A stretch of 64,000 nt of DNA, taken from Schmidtea polychroa. Taxonomy: Eukaryota. How positions within the stretch are numbered: position 1 is the first letter of the stretch; each line of letters begins with the position of its first letter. Below, piece after piece: positions 23,565 to 55,709 of the stretch. The notes below the pieces were generated by a model. The model ran no database searches. It saw nothing but the letters and a program-made list of their open reading frames with translations, and had not been told where the DNA came from. The stretch is taken from positions 17,672,001-17,736,000 of the forward strand of contig CM097885.1 in assembly GCA_044892525.1 (NCBI GenBank), read 5' to 3'. The position numbers were made by a program, and so were the translations under genes.

Positions 23565-25257
23565 ATGGACGTTTCGTCTTTAGATTTAAAAACGGTCTCT
23601 GTACCAGACATTTTAATAAATAAATTAAATTTATATGTAAATAAATTAAAATCATGTAAAATTCAATTTTGTCTAAAGGTGGAATTTATAAAAGATGATG
23701 AGTTACAATCTTTTGTAATCTCGAATTCCGCCCGAGTTTGGAGATATACATTCATTGACGAAGGTATTGCTCGTTTAAATGAAAAAATAATTAAAATTAA
23801 TGAGAAAGGTAGTAATTGGACTATCAATAAAATCGAATACATAAGCTTTGTTCTGACTAAATTTGCTGAAATAAGTCGTTTAAGTGGTAGAAGCTTTATT
23901 GAAACCCCAAAATCTTTAAGAAACTTAAGCTGTCTCATTAATGCAGTTAATAATGACCAATTCTGCTTTTTGTATAGTTTCTTGTCAATTATTAAATATG
24001 ACAGTATAAATAGGCAATATAGAAATCGCCCTAATTCCTACAATCTTTCTGATATTAAATTTGATTCTAATGATATGCCGATGAAACTATCAAATATAAG
24101 TAAATTTGAACAACAAAATCCAGGTTATAGTATTAATGTTCTTACTTACAACGAAAAGGCTTTGATAGACATTTCCGATGAAGATGCAGTTATGAAACAT
24201 CCCTTTATTGATATAATATACAGGAGTAAGATAGTAGGAGCCATACCTATCAATTTATTATTAATTGAAAAGAATGATAATTATCATTATCTTGGAATCA
24301 CAGACCTAAATAGATTCCTTAATTGTAGGAATAGTTCAATCACTCCTGTTAGGATTTGTAGTCAGTGGTGCCCTAGGTGTTTAAACGGGTTTAGGAATGA
24401 TGACGCTTTTAATAGACATAAGGGTCTTTGTGATAAAAATCAGCTTGGTACTACCTTGTACACATTGCCTAAAAATAAATATTTAGAATTTACTGACTGG
24501 AGTAAAACAGTTACTCCTCCGTTTGTTATTTACGCCGAATTTGAGGCTATCTTACCTAAAGACACTCTCTATTTTCAACGTCATCTACCTATTTCTGCCG
24601 GTATACTTTTTATTAATAATTTTACGGGAGTAAAAATTTATAAGTCGTTTACCGGTTTAGATTGTGTCGATCAATTTCTTACTGAAATTGAAATGATAGG
24701 GAAATATATTGTAACTCCTTATTATTATAAAAATTATCAAAAGAAAATGATAATTACAGATGAACAACAATTAATGTTTGAAAACAGTACATCCTGTTAT
24801 TTGTGCAATAAGCCTTTAGTTAGTCCAGTTAGGGACCATGATCATTTTACCGGTCTATATCTTAGTGCCGCTTGTACAACTTGTAATCTGTCGAGGCAAA
24901 TTAGACATATCCTTCCTGTAGTATTTCATAATTTAAAGGGTTATGATCTGCATCATATCTTGAAATTTGGCCTTTCAAAATACCATTCATGGAATATTAG
25001 TTGTATTCCTTTAACCAGCGATAAATTCCTTAGTCTTTTTGCTAGGATTGACTCATTAACTGTTAAATTTATAGACTCATCAATTTGTCAGCGAGTCTTT
25101 GAATAATGCTGTCAAAACTTCATCATCTTTACCCTTGACCGAATCAGAATTTCAGGGTACAATAATAACTGCAAAGGGAATTTTTCCTTATGATGCCGCA
25201 ACTTCATTAGAGGTTTTGCATAACACTCATCAGTTACCTCCTATTTGGAAAGATGTG
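23565..25257 (+). pseudogene. Protein-primed family B DNA polymerase of A, 5' part
   Basis: GSNW, INAVNNDQFCFLYS, FVIYAEFEA, EndoVII-like VRDHDHFTG...CN, VVFHNLKGYD, FIDS, KGIFPY. Frameshift near 25080, cut by element B. Confidence 0.92.
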
Positions 25258-25565
25258 AGTAGTGTGTATCTATCCCTAACGACCACAAGCCTCCCAGCTG
25301 TTTTCATGTTTTATACCTATTTTTTTCCCGTTTTATACCTATTTTTCCCCCATAAACGTAAAAAAAAAACACTTAAAACCTTAAAAACCTATATCTTTTA
25401 ATTTCTTTATTCCGAAGACATTTTGCTTTCAAAATAAAAACTTAAAAAACAACAAAAATATTAAAAAAACAACACAAAATGTTAATAAAACAGGGAAAAA
25501 AATACTGATAAAACTATGAAAAACGTTTGTCGGCTTGCGGTCGTTAGGGATAGATACACACTACT
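25258..25565. repeat. Left TIR of B, itself bounded by a 34-bp inverted repeat
   Basis: AGTAGTGTGTATCTATCCCTAACGACCACAAGCC ... GGCTTGCGGTCGTTAGGGATAGATACACACTACT. Confidence 0.92.
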
Positions 25566-25567
25566 TG

Positions 25568-25718
25568 CAGGTCGCCAGTTTATCAAGTCGCCAGTTTATC
25601 AAGTCGCCAGTTTATCAAGTCGATAGTTTGTCAAGTCAATGATGCAATCGCTGCGGTCTTGGCAAGTCGACAGCTTGGTAAGTCGACAGCTTGGCAGGTC
25701 GATAGCTTGGCAAGCTGC
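25568..25718. repeat. Subterminal 16-bp tandem repeats
   Basis: GTCGCCAGTTTATCAA x3, then GTCGA(C/T)AG(C/T)TTG variants. Confidence 0.85.
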
Positions 25719-25875
25719 TAGAATATAAATATAAAAAAAATAAAAAAAAAATAAAAATAAAAATAAAAAAATAAAAAAAATAAAAATAAAAAAAAATAAA
25801 AATAAAAATAAAAATAAATATATAAAAATTTAAAATTTAAAAACAACGTATCCAGTAAAAAAATTTTTTCTAAAA

Positions 25876-28800
25876 ATGAATTGTAATATTTGCAATAAAG
25901 TTTTTAAAAATAAAACAGGATTAATTTCTCACTATAAATCGAAAGCTCACTTACTAAAAGAAAATAATCTTAATGACACAAATTCAAAAGTTTGTACTAA
26001 ATGTAAAGGAAGATTTCTACATTCTGGATATAATAAACATTTTGAAAATTGTATCGGGAAAAATAGAGAAATATTTACATGTCCTCATTGTAACTTTTCA
26101 ACAAAACTAAATTTCTATTATTTAAGACATTTAAAAGAATGTAAAAATAAAAAACAAAATTCTGACGTTGAAGAATGTCATTCAGAAGGAGAACCTGATC
26201 ATGTTGAAAGAGAAAAATACAACTGGGATGATTTTAATCATATAGATGAATTTCAATTAAAAATTAATGGACCTGCAACCCCTGGAGAATATATAAGGAG
26301 AAATAAAAAAAATATTAAAAATTCTTTCACTGAAGCTTTAAAAAATTATAAACCAACAAGGTATAATGTTATAAAATATAAAATTACAATCAAAGCAAAA
26401 TATTGGAGAGGACCAGAAGAAAAGACAACTCCTTTAGATGTTGAAATTGGAATACCTTTTAAATATTTATTTTCAACTAGAGGATTTAATAAAAGCATCA
26501 AAGAAATAATTCAAGCAGTAGAAGCAAAACAAGAAGAGGTTGAAAATGAATTAGGAGATTCAAACTTAGTATTCAACTCTTTCCAAACTTTAGTGATTGA
26601 TTATTGGAGAGGATTACCACCTAATCCTAAATCTTATATTCAAACACCCTTTAGATCTAGGGTTGTTATAAATGTACAGAATAAGGATAACAAATGTTTC
26701 ATGTGGTCAATACTTGCATATTTACATCCTCAAGCTGAAAACCCTCAAAGAGTTTCAAAATACAAACAATATGAAAATGAATTAATATTTCCCAAGGGAT
26801 TCACACACCCAATGAAACTAGAAGACATTCCAGAATTTGAAAAACTAAATAATCTTAAACTTAATATTTATGAACATGTTAAAGGATGGGGACATGGAAG
26901 GAAAGATATTATTCCAATTTATATTTCTGATAGTGATAGCACGAGGGAGATATATCTTTTAATCTTGGAAGAAGGAAATAATCAACATTATGTTTTAATA
27001 AAAGACTTTCAAGCTTTTACATCACCAGAGAATCCAACTAGTGGAGGAGGAACATGTAAAAGATGTCTTCATTATTCAACAACTAAAAACTCTATGATTA
27101 AACATGCAAGATTTTGTGAAAAAGATGATCCAGCTTTAATTAGAATGCCTACAGATCCCAGGATGTATTTTAAAAACTTTACAAATTTATTACAAACATT
27201 AGGAGTTGTCTATGGAGACTTTGAATCTATAAATCGTAAACAAGATATAATTATGCAATATTTAAAAATAATAGAAAAATATAAACTCATGGATGAATGG
27301 AAAGCCTCTAAACAGAAGATGAAACCAGAGAGGATGAAAGCCTTTCTAAGAAAAAGAAATAAACCTAATAGTGTTAAAAAAACTAAACAATTACCATCTG
27401 CTTATAAATTATTATTTAAAAGTAATTATAGAATCTAGAGAATATGCATTTCAAGGAACTTCAGAAGATGTTTTAAATCATTTTACTAAAAGTATAAATG
27501 ATCTAGAACATGAAATATTTAAAATATTAAAAACAAAGTATCCTCAAAAAATTTCTAATCAACAACAACAAGAATATGAAAATACTTCCAACTGTTGGAT
27601 GTGTAAACAAGACATTCTTCCTGATGATAAAGTTATAGATCACGATCATTTAAAAAAGGAAAATAATTATCGAGGAGCAGCCCATAGAAATTGTAATCTT
27701 AATTGTCATACTCCTAAATTTGTACCAGTTATATTTCATAATCTTTTTGGTTATGACATACATCTATTTATTAAACATTTAGCAGAAAATGCTAAAAACT
27801 CTTTCAAAGTTATAGGACTTACAAAGGAAAAATATAAATCAGTTGAATATGGAAAATTAAAATTTATAGACTCGTTAAACTTTCTCAAATGTCTCTAGAT
27901 GGAATAGCTAAAACAATGAAAGCAGAAAATTTTAAAATCACTCGAGAATTCTTGGAAAAAAATAATATCCCCCAGAAGAATATCCTACATGCTTAGCAAA
28001 AGGAATATATCCCTATGACTATGTTGATTCATTTGAAAAATATAATGAAACAAAATTACCAGAGAAAGAAGATTTCTATTCCCAACTTCAAAAATCTCAT
28101 ATTACAAATCAAGAATATTCTCGAGCAAATAAAATGTGGGATCTTTTCAACTGTAAAACTTTAGGAGAATATACAAGTATGTACTTATCCCTAGATGTTT
28201 ATATTCTAGCAGATTGCTTTGAAGAATTTACAAAGTCTTTTGTTCTTAAACCTTATAATTATATAACAGCTCCTTCTTTAGCTTGGGATACTATGTTATA
28301 TACCATTTGGACTTCAGATCTTCCAGAATCTGATAAAATTATAGATCTTTTAACCGACCAAGATATGTTTAATCAAATTAAAACAAACATTAGAGGAGGA
28401 GTATCTTCAGTAATGGGGAATAGAGAAATAAAAGCTAGAAATGCAATAACTACTAGCCGAAGAATCTCTAAACACCCTGATCCATATATAAAACTTAACA
28501 ATGAGGAACTAAAAGAAGTATTAGAAGGAATGAAAAATCCTCTATTTATACTTTATATAGATGCAACAGCTTTATATTCAGGAATTATGACTCAATATTT
28601 ACCAATGAGTGACTTTCAAGAAATATACTCCTCTGAAGGACTTCCAGAAATAGAATGCCCTCCAGAAGAATATTTAAAGACTCTTATGAATGAAATACTT
28701 TCAACTCCTAAAGATTCTCCAATAGGATACTTTGTAGAATGTGACCTCGACTACCCAGATGATATAAAATCAGGAACAAGACATTTCCCTTTAGCTCCTA

Positions 28801-30200
28801 TAAGAAGAAAGATTGATATCAACGAACTTTCACTCTGGCAAATCTCACAAGATAAACCTCCAACAATGAAACTTCTTTGTGATCAAACAGATCGAACTTA
28901 TTATCTTTGTCACTATAGACTCCTCCAGTTTTATCTTTCACAAGGAATGATATTAAAAAAAGTTCATAGTGTCATAAGATTTAAACAAGCAGCATTCATG
29001 AAGACTTTCATCGAGGAGAACATTCGTTGTCGAAACATTGCAAAAAGAGAAGGTAACCTTTTAAAAGACAATAATTATAAACTTTTAAACAATTCAGTCT
29101 TTGGGAAGACAATGGAGAATGTTGATAAATATACTCATATTGAACTCCTAACAAATACCCCGAAAGATATAGCCCGTTATAATCGTATGCTAGGAAAGCC
29201 TACATTTAAAAATGCAGAAGTATTTTCTGAAAATCTTACTGCAGTAGAACTACAGAATTTTGAGAAAACATATAATAAACCAATATTTATCGGCTTTGCA
29301 ATTTTAGAACTTTCAAAATTACAAATGTATGAAACATATTATAACATCTTACAACCTATATATGGATCGAATATAGCAATGCATGCAATGGATACAGATT
29401 CAATGTTTTTAACAATAAGAACTCACGATTTACAAAGTGATATCTCTGAAAATCCTATACTTTCAAATTTAATAAATTCATCTGGAGAATTATTTTCGTT
29501 TAAAGATGAAAAACCTTTTACTCCTATAGAAAATGGAATATTTATTCGTGCTAAACAATATTCATATGAAACATTTACAAATCCTAAATTTGAAGAACAT
29601 TCATTTATATTTAAAACCCCAGAAACAGAAGAAAGCATTACACATAGATATCCTATATTCCCTAAAGGACCTGACGGACAGGGAGAAAAACCTGTAAAGG
29701 ATAACAGATGTAAAGGAATTCAGAGATGTGTAGCAAAGAATCTTTCTCATCAAGATTATATAGATACATTGAATCCAAATCATAAAGATAAAATTGATGA
29801 AATACATCAACTTAAAAGTGAAAAGCATGATATTTACTTGATAGAATCCCAAAAAGTATCATTATCAAATTATGATGACAAAAGATTCATACTAAGTGAT
29901 TTAAAGACAACTCTTCCTATAGGAAATAATTTAATACCGATAATAAAAAATCTTGATAGATTGAATCAGTTATATGGTACAAAGATTACTGATCTTGATA
30001 TTTATAATGTTGAAATCATTTATCCTGAGAGAATTGAGAAACCTTTATATTCTCAAGTTTTTAATCCTATATGTTTAGAACTTAAATATTTTAATACTGA
30101 TCCTGAATATATAAAAGGTCTAAGTGATAAAGAATTTAAAGATCATAAAGAGGTTCTAAAAACTAATTTCGAAAAGTTAACATCAGATTCTATCAAATGA
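25876..30200 (+). pseudogene. Protein-primed family B DNA polymerase of B (frameshifted)
   Basis: N-terminal C2H2 fingers, INVQNKDNKCFMWS, VYGDFES, EndoVII-like DHDH...YRGAAHRNCN, FHNLFGYD, YIDATALY, KLLNNSVFGKT, MDTDS, CKGI, YDDKR. Frame breaks near 27430 and 27895-27980. Confidence 0.95.
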
Positions 30201-30274
30201 TTTTTTTCTTTTAAAAATGTCAACAATTAATTTAAGAGTGACAACATCAACCTTTTGAAGGGCAATAAATTTTT

Positions 30275-30895
30275 TTATGTATGATTCTTTAGCCACTTCT
30301 TTCGTTTAATTTTTTTAGAATATTCATTACTTATAACATTAGCACTTTTTAATCTTATAACCTCATTTTTAATATCTTGTATTATTTGATTTGATTTCAT
30401 TATTTCTTCGTCTGTTAGGATTCCATCTTCCAAAGCTTTTAATTGAAATAAAAATAATTTAGAGATTCCTAATTCTATTGATAAACAAACTTCTCTATAT
30501 AAACTTTTCTTTTTAGAAGTATAAGATAATGAAACTATTTCAGTTAAGAAACCATCAGCTACAGAAATACTTCCAAGTATTACAGGTGCAAGAGTAACAA
30601 CTGGTAAAGTTATGGGTAAAATAACTGTTAATATTGCAGATGCAAATCCTAAATAATAACCTATAACTTTTAAAACTGTATTCCCTTTATTCCATCTATT
30701 TTTAATTTTTTTATAATGCTTTAATAAATCTTGTAAATGTAAGGTTTCTGATTTAAATTCTTTTACTCTCATAATTTCAAGTTCTGTGGGAGCCGAGGCC
30801 TTGGAACCTTTGTGACCTTCGGAATAATATCTTGATGACAATTCTGGGTAAATTTTTTCTTCTCTTACTTCTTCCATCTTTTGGACTTTGTCCAT
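30275..30895 (-). CDS. Polinton putative membrane protein
   Basis: Central hydrophobic hairpin and KALEDGILTDEE motif. Conserved in E (61775-62386). Confidence 0.7.
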   Translation of the reverse strand: MDKVQKMEEVREEKIYPELSSRYYSEGHKGSKASAPTELEIMRVKEFKSETLHLQDLLKHYKKIKNRWNKGNTVLKVIGYYLGFASAILTVILPITLPVVTLAPVILGSISVADGFLTEIVSLSYTSKKKSLYREVCLSIELGISKLFLFQLKALEDGILTDEEIMKSNQIIQDIKNEVIRLKSANVISNEYSKKIKRKKWLKNHT

Positions 30896-30903
30896 TTTAA
30901 TAA

Positions 30904-31908
30904 TTAAAAAAATAAGACTTTATTCTTCTGAGCACCATCTGGTACCAATACTCGGATATCAAAAGAAACTCTTGTTGAGAGAATATCTTTATACAATTCT
31001 CTCAATGCTTTACGAACTTCATCAACATCAACCTTTTTTTCATAAAATATTAAATCTATATATTGTACAAGTGTGCTTTTAAAAATAATATTCTTACTTT
31101 TAACTTTATGTAGTCCATGTGAATGAGTATTAACATACCAATCTCCGTGTGGTAAATCATAACTAGTCATTATAACATCACCCTTTTCAAGCTTACTATT
31201 ATAATCACATTTCACAAACCATTTCATTCTTTCATTATCATCATCAAACAAAAAGAAATAAGGATCAATAATCTTTACAACCATAAAAACACCCCATTCT
31301 TTACTGTTTGTTGTTATTAAACTTGGTTCTATAAAATGTTTATATGTATGGGGTAATAATGTTTTATTCTGTTCTAATTCAGCAGCTCTTTTTCTAATAC
31401 TATGTGTGGTGTTAATGTGTGTTCCATGAGACTTTAAATTTGAAATTCTTTTATTAAATGATGTAATCATCTCATTTATTATATTATATATTGTATTAAA
31501 TTTAGTATTCATAATTTGTTTATCTTTAGAATTTAATATGCTAGTATTTAACTTTACAACTTGTTCAGTTAACAGACTTTGTAACTTGTCAAATTTATCA
31601 TTAAATCGTTGTTCGATATTATTAAGCTTTGATTCCATTGAATCAATTTTTGTTGTTAATGAACTTTCAATTCTTGTTGTTGTTAAATCAGTATATTTTT
31701 TAACACCATCTACATATTTCTTATTAACTGCATCGAGATTATCAACTGGAAAAGATAAATCTTTTATCTTGTGTGCATTCATACTTAAATCACTCTTCAT
31801 TGAATCACCTCTTTCATTAATATATTTATTTTCTGTTAAAGTTAATATGTCTTCTGTATCAACCCCAATTGTTCCTCCACCTTTATTACATGGAATATAA
31901 GAACTCAT
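30904..31908 (-). CDS. Putative fibre/spike-like protein
   Basis: GDSMKSDLSMNAHKIKDL..P....DAVNKKYVD (tail-fibre/trimeric-adhesin-like motif), then a coiled coil and a globular C-terminus. Adjacent to penton and conserved in E. Confidence 0.6.
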   Translation of the reverse strand: MSSYIPCNKGGGTIGVDTEDILTLTENKYINERGDSMKSDLSMNAHKIKDLSFPVDNLDAVNKKYVDGVKKYTDLTTTRIESSLTTKIDSMESKLNNIEQRFNDKFDKLQSLLTEQVVKLNTSILNSKDKQIMNTKFNTIYNIINEMITSFNKRISNLKSHGTHINTTHSIRKRAAELEQNKTLLPHTYKHFIEPSLITTNSKEWGVFMVVKIIDPYFFLFDDDNERMKWFVKCDYNSKLEKGDVIMTSYDLPHGDWYVNTHSHGLHKVKSKNIIFKSTLVQYIDLIFYEKKVDVDEVRKALRELYKDILSTRVSFDIRVLVPDGAQKNKVLFF

Positions 31909-32012
31909 TTATTAGGGGATTAAAATACTTAAGAATTCCTCTCCCCCTTTGTACACTTCGTTAGTCCTTCTCCGCCTTCTCCCTTTTAGTCCTTCTCCCC
32001 CTTGTGACTTCC

Positions 32013-32768
32013 TCAGACCTGTTTCAAATGTAAATACATTGAAATCTCTTCTCCATTAAAATCAATCAATTCTCCTTCTTGATTAAGAATTTTAAAATTA
32101 ATATCCATTATATATTTTCTACATAAAGGTAAATAATTTGGAGGATTCATTCTTTCAACTATTTTATATCCCATAGGAACTGTGTTTGAGGGAAAGGAAT
32201 ATAAAACATTTGTTTGTTTACCATTATTATAAGAACCAGTTATACAATCGCAATGAATATTTATTGTGTTTGTATTTATTATTTTTATAATATTTTCTGA
32301 TGTAACTACAGGTGTGATATAATGGTTTCGTGTAAATCCTAAAATTGTTCTAAAGAAACTATTATTTTGAAAATGAATTCCTATATTCTCTAAAGTCATT
32401 ATACATTTTGAAGTTGGTAAATCCATTTTAATTTTAATGACTCCATTTGTTTTTTTAGAAAGTATATTATTTAAATCTTTTATCTCATAAGCTCCGGGTT
32501 CGATTGTTATTATAATCTTATCTGTAGATTTTGGGCTTATATAATAAAATATGTTATTATCTTTAGTTATATTAAAAATAGTATTATAAGCACAAAACCA
32601 TAATAGTCCTAATTCATAATTTAAATTTTGATCTAATTTAATTTAATCTTGAAAGTTTATAGTAAAGTCTGATTCTTTTGAATTTATAGATAAAGTTCTT
32701 GAATATTTATCTGACATTATGTTTACCATTTTTTTTAAATTATCTTCCGGAAGGTTGCGAAGCTCCAT
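32013..32768 (-). pseudogene. Polinton B minor capsid protein (penton) with premature stop
   Basis: Collinear with intact 59967-60731, but FQDSIK has become FQD*IK at ~32644. INIHCDCITGSY...LIDFNGEEI motifs. Confidence 0.88.
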
Positions 32769-32770
32769 TT

Positions 32771-33202
32771 TCATAGTATAGATTTTAAATCATTATAAAT
32801 TTCTTGGATTAAGGAAGTGAAACCTTCTCCTTTGGATTTATTCAATCTATACAAAACATATAAGCTTAAAATACCACATATTTTAGTATTATTAGGTTGA
32901 ACTTGTAAAGAATTAAAAGTGTAGTCCGAGAGATAGTCTTCAACTTCTTTAGTGGGTTTAATCCCAAAAGAATCAAAGTATATAGATTTATTATATATAC
33001 AAACCCAATGAGATCCTTTTTCATTTGAATTTTGATAATTTATAATGATATTCTTTGGAGTGTCTTCTTTCAGACTCGACAATTCATCATTCATTAATAT
33101 TTTTATTTTTAAATTTAAATAATCTGCATAATCTTTTAAATCAAAATTTGTTTTTGTATTTATTCCAAATGTTTTTAAAAAATCTAATATTGAAGGAGTC
33201 AT
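32771..33202 (-). CDS. Adenain-like cysteine protease
   Basis: GSHWVC, YFDSFG and QVQ...CG motifs. Confidence 0.92.
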   Translation of the reverse strand: MTPSILDFLKTFGINTKTNFDLKDYADYLNLKIKILMNDELSSLKEDTPKNIIINYQNSNEKGSHWVCIYNKSIYFDSFGIKPTKEVEDYLSDYTFNSLQVQPNNTKICGILSLYVLYRLNKSKGEGFTSLIQEIYNDLKSIL

Positions 33203-33224
33203 TTTATATTTTATAACTTTGTAT

Positions 33225-34022
33225 TTATAACTTCGTATACTTATTAAATTTATCTTTTGAAATTATTCCTTGTTTTAATAATTCTTTAGAAATCTTTAAA
33301 ATATCAGAATCTAAATTATTATGTCCTGCTTTTTTAGCTGCTAATAGTTTTCTTAATTCAATAAAAAGATTGATTGGGTTTATCTCCTTACCCTTTCCCT
33401 GGCCCTGACCCTGGCCCTCTCCTTCTGTGACAATATAACCCCTTTCATTTTTATTTAAATATTTCTTTAAATCTTGAATATGTTTTGCTTTAGCACTACC
33501 ATGTACTAATTCTATTAAATTTAAATATTTTTTAATTTCTAGAAGATCAACATTCTCTGAGGGATATCCACAAACTAATCCATAAAAATCATCTGTAAAT
33601 TCAAAATCTAGGTGTTTAGTATTATAAACATTTTGTGAATGAATACGTGATTTATTTTCTGAATTTAAATATAACAGAAAGTCATGTTTATTAATTGTTA
33701 TTATTTGATATCCTTCAACATTAATATTAAATGTAGGTTTAATTGTTTTACTTAAACTCACATTAATTTTAGGATCAAGTATAAGAGGTTTTATATTTAA
33801 ATCTCCCAACCATGGTAATTCTTTTAAATCTTGTTTATCTTCCAACTCTTTAAATTTTAAAACTTCTAACTCTTTTATGGCTTTAATTGTTGGTCCTTGT
33901 TGTTGTTGGATTACCTCATTTAATATTATAGATTCAGCGTGTTGAGTTGTATCTTTTTTATTATATTTATCTTGTTCTGATTGTAATTTTTTTAAAAGTG
34001 CTAATCTTTCTTCATATACCAT
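33225..34022 (-). CDS. Conserved Polinton protein of unknown function
   Basis: C-terminal LRKLLAAKKAGHN...ELLKQGII motif typical of Polinton ORFs. Homologue in E. Confidence 0.7.
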   Translation of the reverse strand: MVYEERLALLKKLQSEQDKYNKKDTTQHAESIILNEVIQQQQGPTIKAIKELEVLKFKELEDKQDLKELPWLGDLNIKPLILDPKINVSLSKTIKPTFNINVEGYQIITINKHDFLLYLNSENKSRIHSQNVYNTKHLDFEFTDDFYGLVCGYPSENVDLLEIKKYLNLIELVHGSAKAKHIQDLKKYLNKNERGYIVTEGEGQGQGQGKGKEINPINLFIELRKLLAAKKAGHNNLDSDILKISKELLKQGIISKDKFNKYTKL

Positions 34023-34044
34023 TTTAATGGTATTAAAAATGGTA

Positions 34045-34647
34045 TCATTTTGGTAAAGGATCCGTTGGAAAGGATTTCAAGTATAAACCTTTACCATTTT
34101 TAATTTTACAAAGACATCCATTCTTTAAAGATTTACATATTTTTTTAAAATCATCTTTATCTTTTGAAGATAAAGATTCAGATGATGAAATTTGATTTTT
34201 TAAAAAATCATTTAAACCACGGCCTTTATAAGGATCAAGATAGAGACCCCTTCCCTGAGACTTTTGCAGACTCCCCTCATATGGATTAAGATAGAGACCC
34301 TTTCCAACGGACACTCCCCCTTTAGCTTGATCCTTCTTCATTGAATCGATTTCAGTTTGTAGTTTTTCTTTTTCTAGGTCTGTCTTTTGAGATTCTTTAG
34401 CTTTTTGAACTGTAGTTGCAATTCCTCCAGCTATTCCAGCAGCACCTGATAGTCCGGCAATGATTGCAGGTATTAAAGCAGCTAATGGAAGAATGCCACC
34501 TTCTTTAGCTTCGTGGAGCTTCGCTCTAACTTGTTCTTTTACATGTTTTCCAATAAAATATTTTTTACCAGAGATTACTACTGATTTATTCTTGTCTGAA
34601 TTTATTAATTCTTGCAAAAATTCCTCTGTAGGGTTTTGTGTTGTCAT
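34045..34647 (-). CDS. Polinton core-like precursor protein
   Basis: EGGILPLAALIP...AGIAGGIA hydrophobic segment and repeated G(K/R)GL motifs. Confidence 0.75.
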   Translation of the reverse strand: MTTQNPTEEFLQELINSDKNKSVVISGKKYFIGKHVKEQVRAKLHEAKEGGILPLAALIPAIIAGLSGAAGIAGGIATTVQKAKESQKTDLEKEKLQTEIDSMKKDQAKGGVSVGKGLYLNPYEGSLQKSQGRGLYLDPYKGRGLNDFLKNQISSSESLSSKDKDDFKKICKSLKNGCLCKIKNGKGLYLKSFPTDPLPK

Positions 34648-34662
34648 TTTATAATAAATAAA

Positions 34663-35442
34663 ATGGATATTTGGAAACCAATTTTAAATAGACATAAGAG
34701 TAAATTTAATAATAAAGTATTTCCTGATAATTTTAGATGCTTAATTATTGGATCTTCTGGATGTGGAAAGAATGTTCTTCTTTTGAGGATGTTATTAGAA
34801 GATGGTTTTTTAGATTATAATAATTTAATCTTTTATTCTACAACCATTAACCAACCAGAATTACAACTTTTGAAATGTGGATTTGAAAATAAATTAACTA
34901 AAAAAGCTATAATTGATATTTTTAAAAATCAACATACATATCCCGAAGAGGTTTTTCATCCTTGTGATATGGTTGATTGGTACAAGGAAAAGATTTTAGA
35001 ATCAGATATTAGTAATAAAAATGATTATATAGGGGATGGAATCCAGATCTTATTCTCTAATAAACCTGAAGATGTTTTACATTGTGATTTACTTCCTAAA
35101 GATAAAAAGAATCTAGTTATATTTGATGATGTTGTTAACATGAAAAATCAAGAGATTCAAAAGAGTTACTTTACACGAGGTAGACATAATAATTGTAATG
35201 TTATTTATATATCTCAAACATATTATGCTTTAGATAAAAACTCTATAAGAAATAATTCTAATTGTTTTATATTTTTTAAATTAGACAAGCGTGATAAGAA
35301 TATGATTTATAATGATTTATTTTCAAATGTTGAACCTGATAAGAATATGTTTGATATGTTTGTTGATAATCATTGGAAAGAAAAATATAATTATATTTAT
35401 TTGGATAGAGAAGAAGCTGAAATGTGGAAAAGTTTATTTTAG
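34663..35442 (+). CDS. Polinton B packaging ATPase
   Basis: GSSGCGK, VIFDD, RGRHNN, YISQ and IRNN motifs. Confidence 0.93.
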   Translation: MDIWKPILNRHKSKFNNKVFPDNFRCLIIGSSGCGKNVLLLRMLLEDGFLDYNNLIFYSTTINQPELQLLKCGFENKLTKKAIIDIFKNQHTYPEEVFHPCDMVDWYKEKILESDISNKNDYIGDGIQILFSNKPEDVLHCDLLPKDKKNLVIFDDVVNMKNQEIQKSYFTRGRHNNCNVIYISQTYYALDKNSIRNNSNCFIFFKLDKRDKNMIYNDLFSNVEPDKNMFDMFVDNHWKEKYNYIYLDREEAEMWKSLF

Positions 35443-35453
35443 GGCTTGTCGAC

Positions 35454-36842
35454 TTAAAAATCTGTTTTCTGTAACTCATTATTATAAAATCTACCTAATA
35501 TTTTTTCATTATTTAAATCGATGATACCATATGTTATTGGAGTTGTATGATGTATTTTATTTATAATAAAAATTTCATTTGTCCATTTTGCTGTGAATCC
35601 TTTTTCAAATTTATTTTTATATTTAAATATTCTTACGCGGTCACCAATTTTAAATTTTGGTTTTATAGGGGTTGTATCAACAATAACATCATTTTCAATA
35701 TTTACCACTTTAATGGTTTCAGGCTTCATGGAAGCATTTAAGGGTGTTGATTTTATAGAACTATGTACATCATTATTATATTCATTTACAATCTTTTGTA
35801 ACAATTCATTATTCCATTTTTGTTTTCCAATAGCAGTAAAATATTTCCACATTTTATATTTTAATGTTCTATTTAATCTTTCAACTACGACTGCTTTTCC
35901 TTCGTTTTCTGTTGAATATAATTTAATATCATTTTCATTTAAAAACTTTGTAAAAACTTTGTTATAAAATTCTGTTCCTTTATCACACCATAAATATTTT
36001 GGAATTCTTTGATATTCTTCAAATATATTTTCAAATGCTTCTGTAATTGAATATCCTGTTTTATTTTCTAAACACCTTGCAAAAGCAAATCTTGTATATA
36101 AATCTATTACTGTTAAAATTATTTTATATTTTTCAGGGTCTGATGATTTGGGCATAAAGACTAAATCAGCAGACCATGTTTGATCTTTTTCATGTACTTG
36201 AACTTTTAAATATTTTTTATTTTTTCTAAATTCATGGTGTAATTCGTTGGCATATTTTATTTCTGATTCTGTTGGGTTTTGTAAGGGTTTATTCTCAAAG
36301 AGTTGATTCTCAAGGGATCTTTCAACGTCTGCTTGTTCAATAATCCTTTTATTAGCAACATCTTTTGCTTTTCTAGGAAGTCCTGCTCCTATGAAAATCT
36401 TACCTTTCATTGCTAATTTAACTAGAGCTCTTTGAATCTTTTCTTGGGTTGATGGGTTTTGTATATTATTTAAATCATGTATTAAATTCACATCAGCAAC
36501 ATGTCTATCTCTAAGATCTTCTGAATTGTAAGCAATATCATGTTTTAAAGCTGCTTGGTCGATTCTATTTATTGGTTCTTCTCCTTGTTTAGGATTATTA
36601 TTTTCATCTAATCTAATATCTAATCTTGTTCCTGGCCCAGTATAATTGTGTTTAAATAAATGTCTTTTACCTGGATATTTTTCTGTAGTAAAAGGTTTTA
36701 ATATTGAAGATGTTGTTTTTGAAGATTGTAGATCACCTCCTGTAATATCAACTCTCGTATGTTTTTTAGTTTTGAGATGACTTGCTTTGTGATGTCTTGT
36801 AACTTGACAATTACAACTTTCACATGTCCAATATTTACTCAT
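35454..36842 (-). CDS. Zinc finger - phospholipase A2 - integrase fusion
   Basis: CESC...HLKTKKH. Parvovirus-type PLA2 NYTGPGT...PINRIDQAALKHDIAY...AD. Intact D-D-E core (WSADL, LWCDKG, VVERLNRT). No chromodomain. Confidence 0.92.
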   Translation of the reverse strand: MSKYWTCESCNCQVTRHHKASHLKTKKHTRVDITGGDLQSSKTTSSILKPFTTEKYPGKRHLFKHNYTGPGTRLDIRLDENNNPKQGEEPINRIDQAALKHDIAYNSEDLRDRHVADVNLIHDLNNIQNPSTQEKIQRALVKLAMKGKIFIGAGLPRKAKDVANKRIIEQADVERSLENQLFENKPLQNPTESEIKYANELHHEFRKNKKYLKVQVHEKDQTWSADLVFMPKSSDPEKYKIILTVIDLYTRFAFARCLENKTGYSITEAFENIFEEYQRIPKYLWCDKGTEFYNKVFTKFLNENDIKLYSTENEGKAVVVERLNRTLKYKMWKYFTAIGKQKWNNELLQKIVNEYNNDVHSSIKSTPLNASMKPETIKVVNIENDVIVDTTPIKPKFKIGDRVRIFKYKNKFEKGFTAKWTNEIFIINKIHHTTPITYGIIDLNNEKILGRFYNNELQKTDF

Positions 36843-36871
36843 TTTAAAAGTTTTTTTATGGGGGAATCTAC

Positions 36872-38167
36872 TTATGAAGAATCTCCCCTAACATTTTCAA
36901 TAATTGAAATCTTTCCACCATATAATTTCATTTCTATTTTCTTTTCTTCTAATATTAATGTATATACTTTAGCTTTAAAATTAGAATCCTTTGTTATATG
37001 AAGTGTAACATCAACATTATTTATAGCTAGGCGATCATCTTGGTCTGATACATTTATACAAAATATAGAATATAAATTTTTGAAATCTTCTAAACTTAAT
37101 TGCGGTTCAACTTTGAAATCATAACATGTTTCAATATAATTTAGATATGGGAATATGTTTTCATTATTTTCAATATTAAATTCCATTCTATTTATTGGAT
37201 AATAAGAACTATTTAATTGAATTTGGATTGTTTTTAAATTATCATCTCCAATCTTTTGAATAAATAGATTGTTATTTTTTTGGAAAGATGAATCTACTTC
37301 TTTGAATCCAATCAAGATATATCTTGGTCGGTATGCTAAATTTGCCACCTTTATAGAATATGTTGAACCCTCTGTCATACTAAATTCACTACAGATTCTA
37401 TTTAAATAATTTACATTTATAGACTTGTTGGAATTTAATCTTTCAAGGAGTTTGATTTCAGAATGTGGGTTTAATGTCCATTCAGGTATATGCAATTCAA
37501 GTGTTGATAATTTTAATTTAGCTGTTGTGTCTGCAGCTCCATAGAACAATCTTTTATCACCTTCTACTCTATTACAGATGAGTTCTATAAAAACATTATG
37601 AAGTACACGGTTATAATTTTGAAGGAATCCAAATAAGTGTTTTAATTCAAAATAACCTTCAAATTTTTTCAACTTAAAAAGTTCAACTCTTTTATAGTAA
37701 GCATAATTTATATCTAAACCATCTTTATCTAAATCCCCTTTATTAACATCAGGAATCCAACCTGTTAATTCACCATATTCGTTTTTATAATCACAACCAG
37801 TTAAAATAAAATTTAACATTGTAGAATATACTCCTGGATGCAAAACAGTTTCAATTTCTGATGATCCTAGTTTTAATCTCATGTTGGAGAATAAATTTGG
37901 AAAGAAATTATTTTCTAGGGTTATATCTTTGTTTGCTTCAATTTCGAATTCAATTTTATAATATAATTTGGCATTACAAATATCTATTGGGTTTGATGTT
38001 TGAAGAGATTGAAAAACTATATCACCCCTACGATTTAAGTTTGCAATAGATCCTGAAGTTGGCGAGATTTTTAAAATATCATTTTTCTTGATTTCATGAG
38101 TAAATTCTTTATTATAATCAAGATTTAATTTATTTTTTTCTTGAATTTTAAGATTTATATTATTCAT
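36872..38167 (-). CDS. Polinton B major capsid protein
   Basis: Intact 431-aa ORF with NNFFPNLFS, LKHLFGF, RPRYILIGF and YSIFCINVS motifs, consistent with a Polinton double jelly-roll MCP. Confidence 0.85.
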   Translation of the reverse strand: MNNINLKIQEKNKLNLDYNKEFTHEIKKNDILKISPTSGSIANLNRRGDIVFQSLQTSNPIDICNAKLYYKIEFEIEANKDITLENNFFPNLFSNMRLKLGSSEIETVLHPGVYSTMLNFILTGCDYKNEYGELTGWIPDVNKGDLDKDGLDINYAYYKRVELFKLKKFEGYFELKHLFGFLQNYNRVLHNVFIELICNRVEGDKRLFYGAADTTAKLKLSTLELHIPEWTLNPHSEIKLLERLNSNKSINVNYLNRICSEFSMTEGSTYSIKVANLAYRPRYILIGFKEVDSSFQKNNNLFIQKIGDDNLKTIQIQLNSSYYPINRMEFNIENNENIFPYLNYIETCYDFKVEPQLSLEDFKNLYSIFCINVSDQDDRLAINNVDVTLHITKDSNFKAKVYTLILEEKKIEMKLYGGKISIIENVRGDSS

Positions 38168-38203
38168 TTATATAATAAAAATTTAAAAAATGATAAAAAT
38201 CCG

Positions 38204-38286
38204 AACTCCGATAGCGCAGTGGGCTAGACTGGCACAGTGGTTCAAATGGATAGCGGTTCAAATCCTAACTACGGTTAGTTTTTTTT
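38204..38286 (+). ncRNA. Putative Pol III tRNA-like small RNA, B copy 1
   Basis: A box TAGCGCAGTGG (38212), B box GGTTCAAATCC (38255), T8 terminator. Confidence 0.6.
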
Positions 38287-38436
38287 AACATAAAATAATA
38301 TTAAAAATTTGAAAATAATATTGAAAATGGTGTGGGTATCTTAGATTTATATTTTATTTTATTTATTTTTATTTTATTTTATTTATTTTATTTTATTTTT
38401 TTATTAATTAAAAATTTAAAAAATGATAAAAATCCG

Positions 38437-38519
38437 AACTCCGATAGCGCAGTGGGAATAGACTGGCACAGTGGTTCAAATGCTAGCGGTTCAAATCACG
38501 TCTGAGGTTAGTTTTTTTT
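38437..38519 (+). ncRNA. Putative Pol III tRNA-like small RNA, B copy 2
   Basis: A box at 38445, B box GGTTCAAATCA at 38488, T8. Part of a ~233-bp tandem duplication. Confidence 0.55.
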
Positions 38520-38689
38520 CAACATAAAATAATATTAAAAATTTGAAAATAATATTGAAAATAATTTTTGAAAATAAATATTAAAAAAATATATAGTGTG
38601 GGTATCTTAGGAAATAAATCTTGTTTATTTTATTTATTTATTAATTAATTAATTTTTAAACATAAATATGAAAAAAAAAATATTGAAAC

Positions 38690-39050
38690 GGGTGTGGTGG
38701 CGAACCGGTAATTATCGCCACCAGTCTTTCGAACACCCCCGGATCGATTCTATAATGTGCACATTTATTTCTTGGTTGTTTTCGGACCTCTTTCGGATTC
38801 GCTTTCGAATTCATTTGTACTTTCGAGCAGCACACTTAAAACGCCGATGAAATCGACTTCGTGAGCGAGAAGCGAATAATAAGGTGTGCTGCTATTATCG
38901 AATTGATTCTGATATATGAGTCTGGCCAGCTTGTATATTGGAAGAGATTTGATAAACGAAAGAGGTTGAAATAAAAAAAAAATGATCCGGATCAAAAAAA
39001 ACTGTTGAGAGGACAGTGAAAAAAAAATACCACTGTCCTCCCAGAGCAGT
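38690..39050. other. Conserved GC-richer structured non-coding subterminal region of B
   Basis: Hairpins GGTGGCGA/TCGCCACC, GCAGCACAC/GTGTGCTGC and GAGGACAGTG/CACTGTCCTC. Conserved at 52995-53375 and partly at 48675-48860. Confidence 0.65.
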
Positions 39051-39142
39051 TTTACTATTTTCATAAAATTTTTTATTCTTCAAGATTAAGATTTATAAAA
39101 TTATAAATTAGTCAAATAGCAACTTGCTAGTTGACATCCTCA

Positions 39143-39408
39143 AGTAGTGTGTTTATATCCCTAACGACCGCAAGCCGACAAACGTTTTTCATAGTTTTAT
39201 CAGTATTTTTTTCCCCGTTTTATTAATATTTTTGTTGTTTTTTTTAAGTCTTTATTTTGAAACCAAAATGTCTTCAGAATAAAGAAATTAAAAGATATAG
39301 GTTTTTAGGGGTTTTAAGTGTTTTTTTTTACGTTTATGGGGGAAAAATAGGTATAAAACATGAAAACAGTGGGAGGCTTGTGGTCGTTAGGGATATAAAC
39401 ACACTACT
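39143..39408. repeat. Right TIR of B, itself bounded by a 34-bp inverted repeat
   Basis: AGTAGTGTGTTTATATCCCTAACGACCGCAAGCC ... GGCTTGTGGTCGTTAGGGATATAAACACACTACT. Confidence 0.92.
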
Positions 39409-39414
39409 GATGTG

Positions 39415-40740
39415 ACTCCCGCTGAATATGAGACAGCTCAGAGAATTTGGCTTGAAACTTCATGTACTTCACTTTTTGATTACATGATGGCTTATTTAAA
39501 ACTTGATGTTTTCCTTTTAGCCGATTTTTTCCAGCAATTTAGAGCTAAGTCCATTGCTCATAACCGACTAGAGCCATTAGATTTCTTAGGTATTCCAGGT
39601 ATGTCTTGGAATTCAGCCTTATTAACTTTAAACTCTCCAATTGAGCTCCTCACCGATATGGAGATGTATAACTTTTTCGAGGGCGGTATCCGTGGCGGAC
39701 TAACTTTTGTAAATAAACACTATGTAAAAACAGACCCGGATACTGCTTTGCTTTACATAGATATAAATAATTTATACGGTTGGGCTTTAAGTCAACCATT
39801 ATCTTGCAGTGACTTTGAATGGGTTACTGATGATAATTTATTAAATAATATAATTGTTGAATGCACAACGGTAGATTTAGATCTGCTTAATTATGGTTAT
39901 ACCATAGAAGTATTATATTAACACAAATACGGCGTTACGAGCAGCGTCGGCAAATAAACTTGATAAAAGTTTTTATAGATTATTAAACAACAGTCTTTAC
40001 GGCAAGACTGTTGAAAATCTTAAAAAACGTATTAATTTACGTCTGTGTAATTCTTCACAGAAATTATTAACATTCTGTTCGAAACCGACTTTTTGTAAAT
40101 CCACGAAAATCGATGATGACTTGATTTCGGTTTTATTGAGGAAGGACACAGTGTGTTTGAATAGACCTAGTTACATTGGTCAAACTGTACTAGATTTATC
40201 CAAACTCAGGATGTACGAGCTGCAGTATGAAGAGTTGCAAAAATATCTCGACGAATTCAACTGCGAAATTAATATCGTTGCTGGGGACACAGATTCCTTC
40301 TTCTTGGAAATTAAACATTGTAGTCTTGACATTCTTTTACCTGCGATGATTAGAGATCAATTATTAGATACTTCGAAATATGACCCAAATCATCTTTTAT
40401 ATAATAGGAACCTTGATTCTGTCATTGGTAAATTCAAAGACGAGAATAAAGGGTTATTATATAAAGATTGGGTGTTCTTGAGATCTAAATGTTACAGATT
40501 GATGGGTGATGAGGAAAGTATGAAGGCTAAGGGGATAAGTATGAAAGATACTGGACTCACACATCAGTCGTATCTAGATTGTTATTTAAACGATAAAATA
40601 TACACAGTCCCTCAGTTTAGAATAACATCAAAAAAATCACCAACTTTTTAGTATTAAAAATAATAAAAGAACCTTGGCATGTAGAAATGATAAGCGAAAT
40701 TAGGTGGATAAAAATCAAAGTTTGGCATATGGCCATTATA
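39415..40740 (+). pseudogene. pPolB of A, 3' part
   Basis: Continues PIWKDV|TPAEYE. YLKLDV, GIRGG, YIDINNLYG, LLNNSLYGKT, AGDTDS and KAKG motifs. Internal deletion near 39920 and frameshifts. Confidence 0.92.
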
Positions 40741-40977
40741 GGGGCGGTGACACCGATATATTTATAGATTCAACGGAAGCTATCTCAGCAGATGATCCAG
40801 ATGATTTCCTTGATCCAGCAGATGATAATTATTTTGGACATGATTATTTTCGATGATGTGGTTAAATTATTTAATAATTGTATTGATTTTATTGTCTTGA
40901 ATATTTTTAACAGTACCTTTGCGAGCAGTACATTAGTAACCTTTACCTTTGTGACCATTACCCAATGTTTTAATAAA

Positions 40978-41836
<859 letters not shown>

Positions 41837-41966
41837 TATTATTTCAGGTTCTTTGAACTCAATAATAATTTTGTCAGTATATGCTTCTTCTGATAATCCT
41901 AAACTAGTAGCCAAAATTTACTAAATTGAACTTTACTGACAACATCTTCCAATATAATTTTAACTC

Positions 41967-42193
41967 TTTTTCCTTTGAATTTATTGAAAAGAGAGTTTGA
42001 AGACTATAAATCAGTAATATATCGATGTTTGTTGATAATCGCAAATTTTCGGCACTGCCTTTTTCAAGTGAATTTTCCTTGAAAATATTCACTTGAAAAA
42101 GGCAGTGCCGAAAATTCTTGAGTATCAACAAACATCGATATTTTACAGAGTTATAGTCTTCAAACTCTCTTTTTAATAAATTCAATGGAAAAA
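41967..42193. repeat. ~225-bp imperfect palindrome (foldback/MITE-like)
   Basis: Arms such as TTTTCGGCACTGCCTTTTTCAAGTGAAT / ATTCACTTGAAAAAGGCAGTGCCGAAAA, centred near 42079. Confidence 0.85.
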
Positions 42194-42539
42194 ATAATCA
42201 GTGGTGAAATTGGAAGAAATATAAGTTCTAATAATAAAACTCTTTCCGTTTTGAATTTCACTTGATTTAAATGGACGAGGATAAAAGATCGATAATTGAT
42301 CATTTATTTGATATACAAAATATTTTTTCAATCTTTCTCTTAAAGTTCGATCAAATCATTCTACATGAGGTTAAAATACCGATTAATGATTTATTCTTTT
42401 GATATCCTCTAACTTTGTTATAAAATTCTATATCTAATTATTCACTTAAAATTTAATTTAATTTAATTTAATTATTCAAATTAGTTTGTAAATTACTAGG
42501 TTGACCATCATCAAACATTTGTTTTATTCATCAGCCATT

Positions 42540-43330
42540 TCATTAGTATATTTGGTTTTTGTAGGGAAAAGCGCGCGTATCTATTAAAAATACCAATGTA
42601 AGTCAAAATATATTTGTATCATTTGTAGATTTTCGAATAAGGAATCATTTCCATCAAATCCATTTACCATAAATCATTGATTCCAAATGTTTTGTACAGC
42701 CTTGTTGGGATTCGCTTCACCATTGGTTTATTTAAATTATAGATGACCATTTCTGAGTTTCTTTCTTTGAATTATTCACTCGTTTGGTTAATTTTCAGTG
42801 GTTACTCGTCCATATAAGCAATGCAAGTATTGCTTGCACTTCAATTTTGAGAGATTCTATATTTTAAATTTAAAAAAACTCTTTAGAAGACCTTTTGGCT
42901 ACTAAAGACAATTTTTATGATTTAGTAACTAAAGAAAAACAAGAAGAATTGAGTTTATATATAAATAAAATTTATTTTTTGAATTTTTCTTTTTTATTGC
43001 TTGCACAAAAATTTTGAGTACAAGCCGCCACTGTTAATTTTTCTTTACCACCAAAATCATCTGGATCTTTTGGGTTTGTCCATATTGATCTGAGCTTTTT
43101 CTCATTTGTTTTGGAAAATGTTTCTTTCATTATTACAACACGTCGTCAAAATATTAAAATCTACAATAATTTTATTTTGTAATGAACTTTTAATGCCCTT
43201 TAAGAATTTAATGATGCAATTGCACTAAATACTGAAAAGACTATTGGGATTAATACACCCAAGAATCCATTTTCTGTTTATATATCATCTTTCTCATCAG
43301 ACGCCGATTTTAATATCGACTAACGATAAA
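42540..43330 (-). pseudogene. Relic of an A-family Polinton (core protein end + integrase 5' part)
   Basis: IWTNPKDPDDFGG, SKKETQKW and PTRLYKTFGINDLW*MDLMEMIPYSKI match 11327-11600. Confidence 0.8.
42796..43033. mobile_element. hAT-type MITE
   Basis: CAGTGG...CCACTG ends with an exact 8-bp TSD TTAATTTT. Interrupts the integrase relic. Confidence 0.8.
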
Positions 43331-47239: not shown

Positions 47240-47380
47240 TAAATAATAATTAGTAATAACTAATAAATCTACATATTGAACAGTATTTATAATAAATATT
47301 GTAGAAAAATAAAACTAATTGGTACAATATATTTATTGGTTTCCAAATCTTTGTATAAATTGTATGTGGTATTTGTTAAT

Positions 47381-48234: not shown

Positions 48235-48526
48235 AGTAGTGGTGAAACTAGTCGCCTTGCCCACCCCTTCCCTATTATGTTAGATCTGTATTTTAATAAA
48301 TTTGTAAGATCTAAAAATCTCGGGTGTCTATGTTTAGAATATATTGAATTTTTAAAATTTCAGGTATTAGTATTTGGATTTATTGAATCTATAAAATCTC
48401 GGGTGTCTGATTTAGAGGATATTAAATTTTGAGAAATATTGAAATATTAAATAATACGTTTTTATTATTCACAAATGTTGCGATTATGGGGTGGGGTGAG
48501 GCAAGGCGACTAGTTTCACCACTACT
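48235..48526. mobile_element. AGTAGT-bounded hairpin cassette (mini Polinton-end-like unit)
   Basis: Perfect 27-bp inverted repeat AGTAGTGGTGAAACTAGTCGCCTTGCC. No TSD found. Confidence 0.75.
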
Positions 48527-51560: not shown

Positions 51561-52632
51561 AAATTTATTTCTTTGTCAAGGTTTTTCGTTTCTGACATAT
51601 TTCACAACTTTGTGTATATTGACACACGATTTTATTTAATTCCTAAATATCGTAATTTATTGATTTTTATTGTACATTTAGTGTATTTTAATTGATTAGT
51701 TGAGATGAAATAATAGCAAATCAAACGAGAAAAGTTTATGTATACTACCTGGATTTTGTCATTATTTCAAAAAATAAGTCTGAGAAATATTAAGAAGAAG
51801 CATTCATTATTTAAACCAGTTTATGCTTTCCATGATTATGAAATGCATTTATTGAAGAAACCAATAGATTATAATTTGATGAAACCTAATGCATTAATGA
51901 AGAAATGCAATAATTATTGGATTGAACAATTTGATGAAGATATTCAAGATGCTATTGGTACATTATTGGCATGTATCAATAAGGACCTTGTGATTTATGA
52001 AAGCGGATCATTTCTAGGTGGACAATCAAGTGAATTTTAAGAAGAAAATAATCAAATACCTTTTAAACCAGATTTTAACCCTTTCCTATCTTGTGTCTAT
52101 AAAAATATGACAAAAAGAAATTAACCATTCTATCCTCTGTCTGTAAAAAAATAACATTATTTCTAAATAGTTTATTTCCCATGCACTGTCAATTATATTA
52201 TAACCAACTGTTATGACCAAAAACTAAAAAAAAATAATTTTTTGAAAATTTTTTAAAATTTTATTAGGATTGGAAGGGCTGGACACCTAAAATAAACAAG
52301 ATAGGAAAGGGTTAAATGGAATTTGAAAATATGTATCCAAGGTTTCAAAACAGCACCAAGTGCAGTTAAATATTACTAGTATGGAACATTATAAGTTGAA
52401 AATTATAAACAACGATTAATGTTAATATTGTTCAGTTTGTTTAATAAAAGTTTTACAAAATCTTAATTTTATGTTGTTATAAAAATACTTTGAAATTTAA
52501 AATTCAAATTATTTATTCAATATAAGTTTCATTGGTTTCATTAATGTTGACAAATATTAATTACCGAGGACGAGTCCATTTGAAAATTATACGAAATATG
52601 AGATATCCATCAGGTAAACCTCAACAAAATTT

Positions 52633-52873
52633 AGTGAGGAATCTATGCACCCCAGCACCCCCACCCTAAAAAAAACAGCGCTATTGACCCATATTTTCCA
52701 CATTTATATGCTTTTTTACCCCATATTCTTCACTTTTTTTAACTTTTAAACTTTGTCCCTATTGCCATTAACCCTTAATTTCTTCCCTTAAAAGTAAAAA
52801 AGTTCGGAATAGATGTATTTATAGATTAGTAATTCCGAGAAAAGGTAACGGGGTGCATAGATTCCTCACTACT
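52633..52873. repeat. Terminal hairpin cassette of E
   Basis: AGTGAGGAATCTATGCACCCC (52633) inverted with GGGGTGCATAGATTCCTCACTACT (52850-52873). Confidence 0.85.
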
Positions 52874-55692: not shown

Positions 55693-55709
55693 TATTTTAA
55701 CATTTTAAA

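Follow-up and report, generated by a model that had tools for sequence, protein, structure and literature searches.

Polintons, also called Mavericks (Polintoviricetes), are described with terminal inverted repeats (TIRs) of 100 to 1500 bp, a target duplication of 5 to 8 bp, and a length of 13 to 25 kb (bioRxiv 10.1101/2023.08.22.554363). Terminal-protein and endonuclease domains have been reported in Polinton polymerases (10.1101/2024.03.18.585575), and a TIR together with replication genes has been described as an "end module" (PMC11296320). We analyzed one such element, here called Polinton B, in a stretch of 64,000 nucleotides from Schmidtea polychroa (GenBank assembly GCA_044892525.1, contig CM097885.1, positions 17,672,001 to 17,736,000 of the forward strand; the whole stretch is referred to as the window, and positions are counted from its first letter). 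What distinguishes Polinton B from known Polintons is that the terminus of each TIR recurs, inverted, further inside that TIR and that the two copies coevolve. In the literature that we searched, which includes PMC12220804, 10.1101/2025.02.07.637071, and PMC4061559, a Polinton terminus with a spaced inner copy is not described, subject to the Repbase/Dfam entries and the founding Polinton paper.

Self-complementary or paired ends are known from several other systems. For adenovirus and PRD1, it is established that protein-primed replication displaces strands and leaves them single, and a panhandle formed by the inverted terminal repeats (ITRs) has been proposed as a duplex origin on the displaced strand through which homology is restored; the same source notes that the panhandles of protein-primed viruses still lack direct evidence (PMC11886824). 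The B family shares with these viruses an exchange between the two ends that is anchored at the terminus, but each terminus also has a second, local partner at a distance of 240 to 310 bases, and a Polinton here may have ends that stay different or are of different types. The rolling-hairpin ITRs of adeno-associated virus (AAV) and parvoviruses have a 3' fold-back whose last base abuts the body, as predicted here for Polinton B, yet AAV ends flip and flop (PMC11575299), whereas none of the B-family ends compared is flipped, no Rep was found, and the element has an integrase and a polymerase of the protein-primed type. Halocafeteria virophages as well as PLVs (polinton-like viruses), integrating relatives of Polintons, also have self-complementary ends beside the target duplication; these palindromes are tight (52 nt in one example, with a gap limit of 10 in the search) and go mainly with genes other than pPolB (bioRxiv 10.64898/2026.07.28.741278). 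In contrast, the arms of 21 to 34 nt found here enclose a loop of 190 to 250 nt, go with a PF03175 polymerase, and coevolve across copies, which places them outside the definition of a tight palindrome.

Nested termini in Polinton B and related end families

Polinton B is a Polinton. It encodes a protein-primed-type family B polymerase, a retroviral-type integrase, a packaging ATPase, and a double jelly-roll capsid, has TIRs of ∼270 to 310 bp, measures 14,151 bp, and is surrounded as a whole, rather than as single end cassettes, by a 6-bp target duplication, GATGTG (Table 1). Its family B polymerase, rve integrase, A32 ATPase, double jelly-roll capsid, and phospholipase A2 (PLA2)-like domain, as well as TIRs of a few hundred bp, a 6-bp duplication, and a length of 14 kb, are shared with the PLA2-bearing "adintovirus" type of Polinton (PMC8502044; bioRxiv 10.1101/2023.08.22.554363).

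An earlier, sequence-only reading of the window had placed four copies of the terminus at 25258 (+), 25565 (−), 39143 (+), and 39408 (−), and we found them there. The alleles are also as it had given them, both left copies reading GTGTATCTATCC and both right copies GTGTTTATATCC, and position 28 follows place rather than end: both outer copies have A there, and both inner copies have G. Within one end, the two copies agree over 27 nt, and over 34 nt except for position 28; the identity begins at the first base of AGTAGT exactly, and beyond position 34 pairing continues imperfectly to ∼80 nt. The base of the end stem coincides with the host boundary. A fold-back of the 3' terminus is predicted by folding energy from the sequence: the left cassette folds at −63.8 kcal/mol, compared to −23.5 ± 3.8 kcal/mol for 100 shuffles (z of −10.7; no shuffle as good). 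The strand carrying the terminus as its 3' end was the better folder in all four ends tested, by 1.7 to 5.1 kcal/mol. On this strand, position 28 gives a G·T wobble in the B family, whereas the opposite strand has an A·C mismatch. B-family end modules measure 242 to 309 bp, are AT rich, and encode nothing, the integrase being located in the body of the element.

Nested ends of this kind, with an inverted copy of the terminal 21 to 34 bases lying ∼250 bases further in, were found in the B family, in three other Polinton end families of this genome, and in one distant metagenome contig. Two of these families have an end module in the window (Table 1), and the motif matches of the third would correspond to about 780 copies at four repeats each. 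The fourth yielded 84 motif matches and identities of 22 to 28 nt, and 12 of its 15 fetched cassettes, representing five haplotypes, have outer and inner copies identical over 22 nt. The metagenome contig (L164), which has a 31% identical capsid and a 21-nt identity over 150 bp, is 1 of 34 with a related capsid, most of which may not reach an element end. Altogether, the identity starts at the first terminal base in five unrelated end sequences, over 27, 27, 24, 22 to 28, and 21 nt. Scans of viral contigs, prokaryote genomes, and phage records revealed no nested Polinton-type ends. The nested end is a family-wide and probably a clade-wide Polinton end architecture with concerted change.

Concerted change within and between ends

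We then compared copies across the organism's own 781-Mb genome, by searches and fetched stretches; counts are among the matches listed. At least 127 of at least 141 B-family ends have both repeats, and 106 of them are unique by host flank. Fifty-eight end pairs share a target duplication, which is an exact 6-bp repeat in 57. Left outer (LO), left inner (LI), right outer (RO), and right inner (RI) repeats were compared over positions 7 to 14. Outer and inner copies are equal in 46 of the 51 unique left ends and in 23 of the 55 unique right ends, three cassettes with a left-type marker being counted as right ends because BLAST placed them on the capsid side. Thirty-six unique elements have all four repeats, excluding duplicated insertions, elements having an end without inner copy, and elements with two like-classed ends. 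Among them, LO equals LI in 33, RO equals RI in 14, LO equals RO in 20 (shuffle mean, 11), and LI equals RI in a single case; RO exactly matches either LO or RI in 32. The commonest pattern, with LO, LI, and RO alike and only RI different, was seen in 16 elements, and the pattern of Polinton B, alike within ends and unlike between them, in 10.

The shuffling tests are significant, yet the copies are kin, and matched haplotypes and co-changed sites are a better measure. Seven distinct B-family haplotypes have outer equal to inner over positions 7 to 27. A change shared by the outer and the inner copy was recorded at 11 sites, none of them past position 34 among the sites tabulated to position 46, and the adjoining imperfect stem (positions 35 to 80) exhibits no co-change. 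At C1:122945328, four private changes are common to both copies of one end and absent from the other end. These data indicate that matching within an end is real and requires a comparison of the two copies, either by copying or by selection for pairing.

Sequence also passes between ends. In an alignment of the 106 modules, left-type sequence extends into right modules from the terminus inward, mostly over the first 14 to 31 nt and once to mid-loop; six tracts cross the loop and leave the inner copy unchanged, and two include the inner tip. Two elements have ∼1.0 to 1.4 kb of right-end sequence at the left end. The claim that the terminus is copied within one end rather than between the two therefore holds for left ends (46/51) and fails for right ends (23/55, with LO equal to RO in 20/36). 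Covariation across the family supports both routes, co-change within ends in seven haplotypes and sharing between ends in the 20 elements just mentioned. The seven haplotypes and 11 co-changed sites agree with the intra-end fold-back suggested by the sequence-only reading, although fold-back as the mechanism would still be a deduction from patterns. To call the process unlike the inter-end panhandle was too strong, because terminus-anchored copying between ends, here seen both in RO equal to LO and in the left-type tracts, is just what the classical panhandle is said to do.

Other rearranged copies deserve mention. L288 (C4:47748564-47754768) and three like copies are 6.2-kb copy-back derivatives with left-arm sequence at both ends; the inner repeat is missing at one end, and the 6-bp duplication is present. 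L281 and L282 (C4:89410776-89426033) have an extra inverted 1.1-kb right end before the element, with 170 bp of inverted duplicate flanks, and a mirror copy of this arrangement lies near C4:90332513. In L045 (C1:80094124-80094695), a third inner repeat is located another 327 bp inside; it is partly decayed, and the flank before it is the one typical of another subfamily.

Evaluation of the genes behind each end type showed that the N-terminal half of the polymerase is 86 to 99% identical to that of Polinton B behind B-family ends (4/4 fetched), 55 to 60% behind fourth-family ends, 55 to 56% at 5 of 7 third-family polymerase ends, and 41 to 45% behind second-family ends. The capsid, for comparison, is 93 to 100% identical to that of Polinton B in the third and fourth families. 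The neighboring third-family Polinton, inverted with respect to B (window positions 52630 to 64000; L185:1-3847), illustrates this: its capsid, ATPase, and integrase are 96, 93, and 88% identical to those of Polinton B, and its polymerase is 48 to 68% identical, with a wholly different end sequence. End type thus appears mostly to track the polymerase, not the capsid or the integrase, which points to a function as an origin more than to one in integrase recognition.

Models for the nested end

We give about an even chance to a short-range panhandle, in which the single-stranded 3' end would fold onto the inner copy, the latter acting as both origin and repair template. Strand-displacing replication by the protein-primed polymerase would leave single strands, and the 3' terminus could then pair with one of two sites on its own strand: with the inner copy nearby, giving a short-range panhandle, or with the distant 5' terminus, giving the classical panhandle. 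Whichever partner pairs would serve as the template that rewrites the terminal 21 to 28 bases. The stem would offer a local duplex end from which the element's polymerase could start and repair, and each end could be an origin by itself; ends would then be exchanged as modules, mostly following the polymerase that reads them. With two partners, LO should equal LI nearly always, RO should equal LO or RI, and the inner copies should stay different, as observed. A trace that would be expected from extension of a folded 3' end is found in a single case, the third-family copy L265 (1463-1752, reverse strand; C1 near 150349446), in which the outer terminus is continued by a 58-nt inverted inner repeat plus body flank. 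Beyond the 58-nt copy follows a stretch that may resemble the end of an AAA-ATPase gene.

Several observations weigh against the short-range panhandle. Of the 55 unique right ends, 32 are discordant, so rewriting does not occur in every cycle. Shared descent of the copies makes the permutation P values overstate independence. Position 28 is A in 106/106 outer and G in 105/106 inner copies, though position 31 co-changed; a simple terminus tract does not explain this. The mosaic table has cases fitting inner-to-outer and outer-to-inner copying alike. In the fourth-family element L237/L238, a variant occurs in both inner copies and in neither outer copy. Two of the seven third-family polymerase ends cap a B-family polymerase, ∼1 kb away. 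Several ends lack the inner copy and nevertheless have clean duplications, one such end type in three insertions, so the inner copy is dispensable for integration, at one end at least. The N terminus of the Polinton B polymerase had no PHROGs match for a terminal-protein domain. Host repair could have made the L265 fossil. Finally, no free or replicating form was seen in the public data, which were contigs, and their lack of a strand-changing joint is not evidence of absence.

Other mechanisms would use the same stem differently. The folded 3'-OH might prime second-strand synthesis into the body, as in parvoviruses; to open the hairpin without a flip, the integrase or a nuclease-like domain of the polymerase would cut the newly made strand immediately past the terminus. 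Because the terminal base is exactly where the stem stops, such snap-back extension would start at the first body base; L265 has such a product, and an endonuclease VII-like match is present, weak in the B polymerase and stronger in that of the neighboring Polinton. For PLVs and virophages whose termini are palindromic, hairpin priming has also been put forward, but the palindromic ends in that source go with non-pPolB genes (bioRxiv 10.64898/2026.07.28.741278). The B polymerase belongs to the protein-primed family, and a Pfam scan of the element's 12 larger ORFs detected no Rep/HUH nickase family. The AGTAGT start presumably fits slide-back initiation, again at odds with self-priming. We searched for the flipped cassette interiors that the sequence-only reading had thought of and found none in 106 unique ends, using position 28, and no exact match to a flipped third-family end, so that a special resolution would be needed; self-priming is in our view unlikely. 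We rate slightly lower still the idea that the inner copy is a second duplex binding site, for the polymerase or terminal protein or for a host factor, and that its likeness to the terminus is maintained by generic template switching between nearby inverted repeats and by linkage, with no fold-back in the cycle. Template switching can create and perfect stems with multibase compensatory changes (PMC8794818), many insertions have discordant right ends, and the inner copy is dispensable at some ends; left unexplained are the identity over 21 to 28 nt from the exact terminal base in five sequences and the lack of co-change over positions 35 to 80. It is improbable that a hairpin or cruciform marks the exact terminus for excision, with the integrase or the endonuclease VII-like domain doing the cutting and mismatch repair in the stem homogenizing the copies. 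The stem base does coincide with the host boundary, and single-strand excision is part of the standard Polinton model (bioRxiv 10.64898/2026.07.28.741278). In three third-family copies (L266, L267, and L268, position 1502), internal Polinton DNA is joined exactly at the inner AGTAGT, by two deletions (1.4 and 3.1 kb) and one junction to a 72%-alike relative. End type, however, tracks the polymerase rather than the integrase, and the third family, the most abundant one, has no head-to-head module footprint and no end-to-end or module-to-module junction (0 matches at gaps of 0 to 6 nt). A loop of 190 to 250 nt, moreover, disfavors a cruciform in duplex DNA.

The alternative that each end module, having both an outside end and an inside end, is a mini-element able to move alone, making Polinton B a composite transposon, is largely refuted, and we consider it very improbable. 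In Tn10 and Tn5, each side module has two inverted ends, and rare rearrangements break at the inner end. The modules here likewise have inverted ends, and the three precise inner-end junctions resemble adjacent deletions, but B modules encode no transposase, keep one orientation, and were never found alone with a duplication: none of 127 cassettes has its own, compared to 57 of 58 paired elements with an exact 6-bp duplication around the whole. Four third-family inner repeats with a non-A neighbor are not solo insertions either, corresponding to one point change, two deletions into the body, and one junction to a related Polinton. The sole mini-element (L133, C3:140160476-140160673; 198 bp, with a 6-bp duplication) has two outer-type ends. 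The absence of flips and of solo modules thus argues against both an AAV-type resolution and a composite transposon. As for an assembly or polishing artifact, which the sequence-only reading had named as a possible undoing of the pattern, polishing can collapse nearby near-identical repeats, but we judge the chance of this negligible, because 10 of 36 independent insertions repeat the four-allele pattern, with discordant ends occurring beside it. The pattern is also seen in four families with a fixed difference at position 28, in the unrelated metagenome contig, and in public-run contigs (X4, records 18 and 22), which carry both alleles of the right end, inner and outer, free of substitutions, although this run may not be independent of the assembly.

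Features of the window and implications

The features of Polinton B and of the other nested ends in the window are collected in Table 1.

Table 1. Coordinates of Polinton B features and of further nested end modules in the window
Feature	Position	Strand	Details
Target duplication GATGTG, left copy	25252..25257	+	Empty site with single copy in public contigs; loose ends at 39409
Left end module, self-complementary; also left TIR	25258..25565	+	308 bp
Left outer repeat (terminus)	25258..25291	+	Allele GTGTATCT; A at position 28
Left inner inverted copy of terminus	25532..25565	−	GTGTATCT; G at position 28; imperfect pairing onward to ∼80 nt
Spacer from inner repeat to polymerase start	25566..25875	+	Short-repeat and A-rich
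Family B DNA polymerase gene, organellar/viral type	25876..30200	+	PF03175, E 1e-11
A32-type packaging ATPase	34663..35442	+	PF04665, E 9e-9
Integrase, retroviral type, with N-terminal phospholipase A2-like domain	35454..36842	−	PF00665, E 3e-12; PF08398, E 4e-9
Double jelly-roll capsid	36872..38167	−	PF21738, E 4e-27
Right inner inverted copy of terminus	39143..39176	+	GTGTTTAT; G at position 28
Right end module; right TIR	39143..39408	−	266 bp
Right outer repeat (terminus)	39375..39408	−	GTGTTTAT; A at position 28
Target duplication GATGTG, right copy	39409..39414	+	
Second-family end module	48235..48526		Unrelated after AGTAGTG; nested, 27 nt identical; 16 motif matches
Third-family end module	52630..52873		24 nt identical; first two outer bases altered; 3,122 motif matches

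The polymerase of Polinton B is split over three frames, with frame changes near 27350-27438 and 27898-27966, and forms one frame of ∼1,450 codons in two of four other copies examined. It has an N-terminal zinc finger, and the endonuclease VII-like match mentioned above lies in its middle piece, below cutoff (PF02945, E 0.012). Its nearest Atlas clusters are unnamed eukaryotic proteins. The spacer upstream of the gene varies between subfamilies up to the inner AGTAGT itself. Among the Polinton B ORFs scanned, Pfam gave no match for a maturation protease or a minor capsid protein, and several ORFs are without assignment. A conserved CA before the inner repeat, considered as a retrovirus-like integrase end, occurs in three families (as CG in one subfamily); this rule was dropped because the fourth family does not show it.

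The insertion site of Polinton B is itself a polymerase gene, which belongs to another Polinton and is represented by an ORF from 23565 to the left of the insertion and by PF03175 pieces from 39484 to its right. Polintons are often located inside or within a few kilobases of other Polintons (window positions 23565 to 25257 and 39415 to 48526; L250, L253, and L260), and target preference or clustering is possible. Polinton B has an identical counterpart, in the same flanks, 56 kb upstream (C1:17641216-17655366; L002 and L036), which stems from a regional duplication and does not count as independent. L139:5299-5586 (C2:104829298-104829585) is a fold-back repeat of another kind, a 288-bp element that starts with AGTAGT and has long perfect inverted arms and inverted flanks. 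Elsewhere in the window, duplicated fragments of a proteasome subunit (2974-3670 and 6846-7572) surround a ubiquitin/DUF1759 ORF (4847-6571), a piece of a CENP-B/Tc5-type transposase lies at 13537-14073, and 14889-15290 and 20235-20636 form a perfect 402-bp inverted pair.

How Polintons exit the chromosome and copy their ends has so far rested, in the parts of the literature covered here, on a model of excision, far-end pairing, and protein priming. The hundreds of young copies analyzed here add a structural clue with sharp predictions for native ends, namely a flush 3' stem, no flip, and two competing templates, and the allele table shows copying within and between ends alike. The finding also accounts for ends of different families on near-identical capsid modules. 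For annotators, each Polinton end resembles a MITE (miniature inverted-repeat transposable element) and may be mistaken for one. More tentatively, and at somewhat less than an even chance, we propose that a clade of Polintons has a second, local origin at each end, where the terminus would pair with a dedicated inner copy, the stem would permit a start or self-priming without a flip, and the ends would behave as autonomous, polymerase-matched modules swapped between near-identical bodies. If true, such a way of replicating ends would take a place between the panhandles of adenoviruses and the hairpins of parvoviruses.

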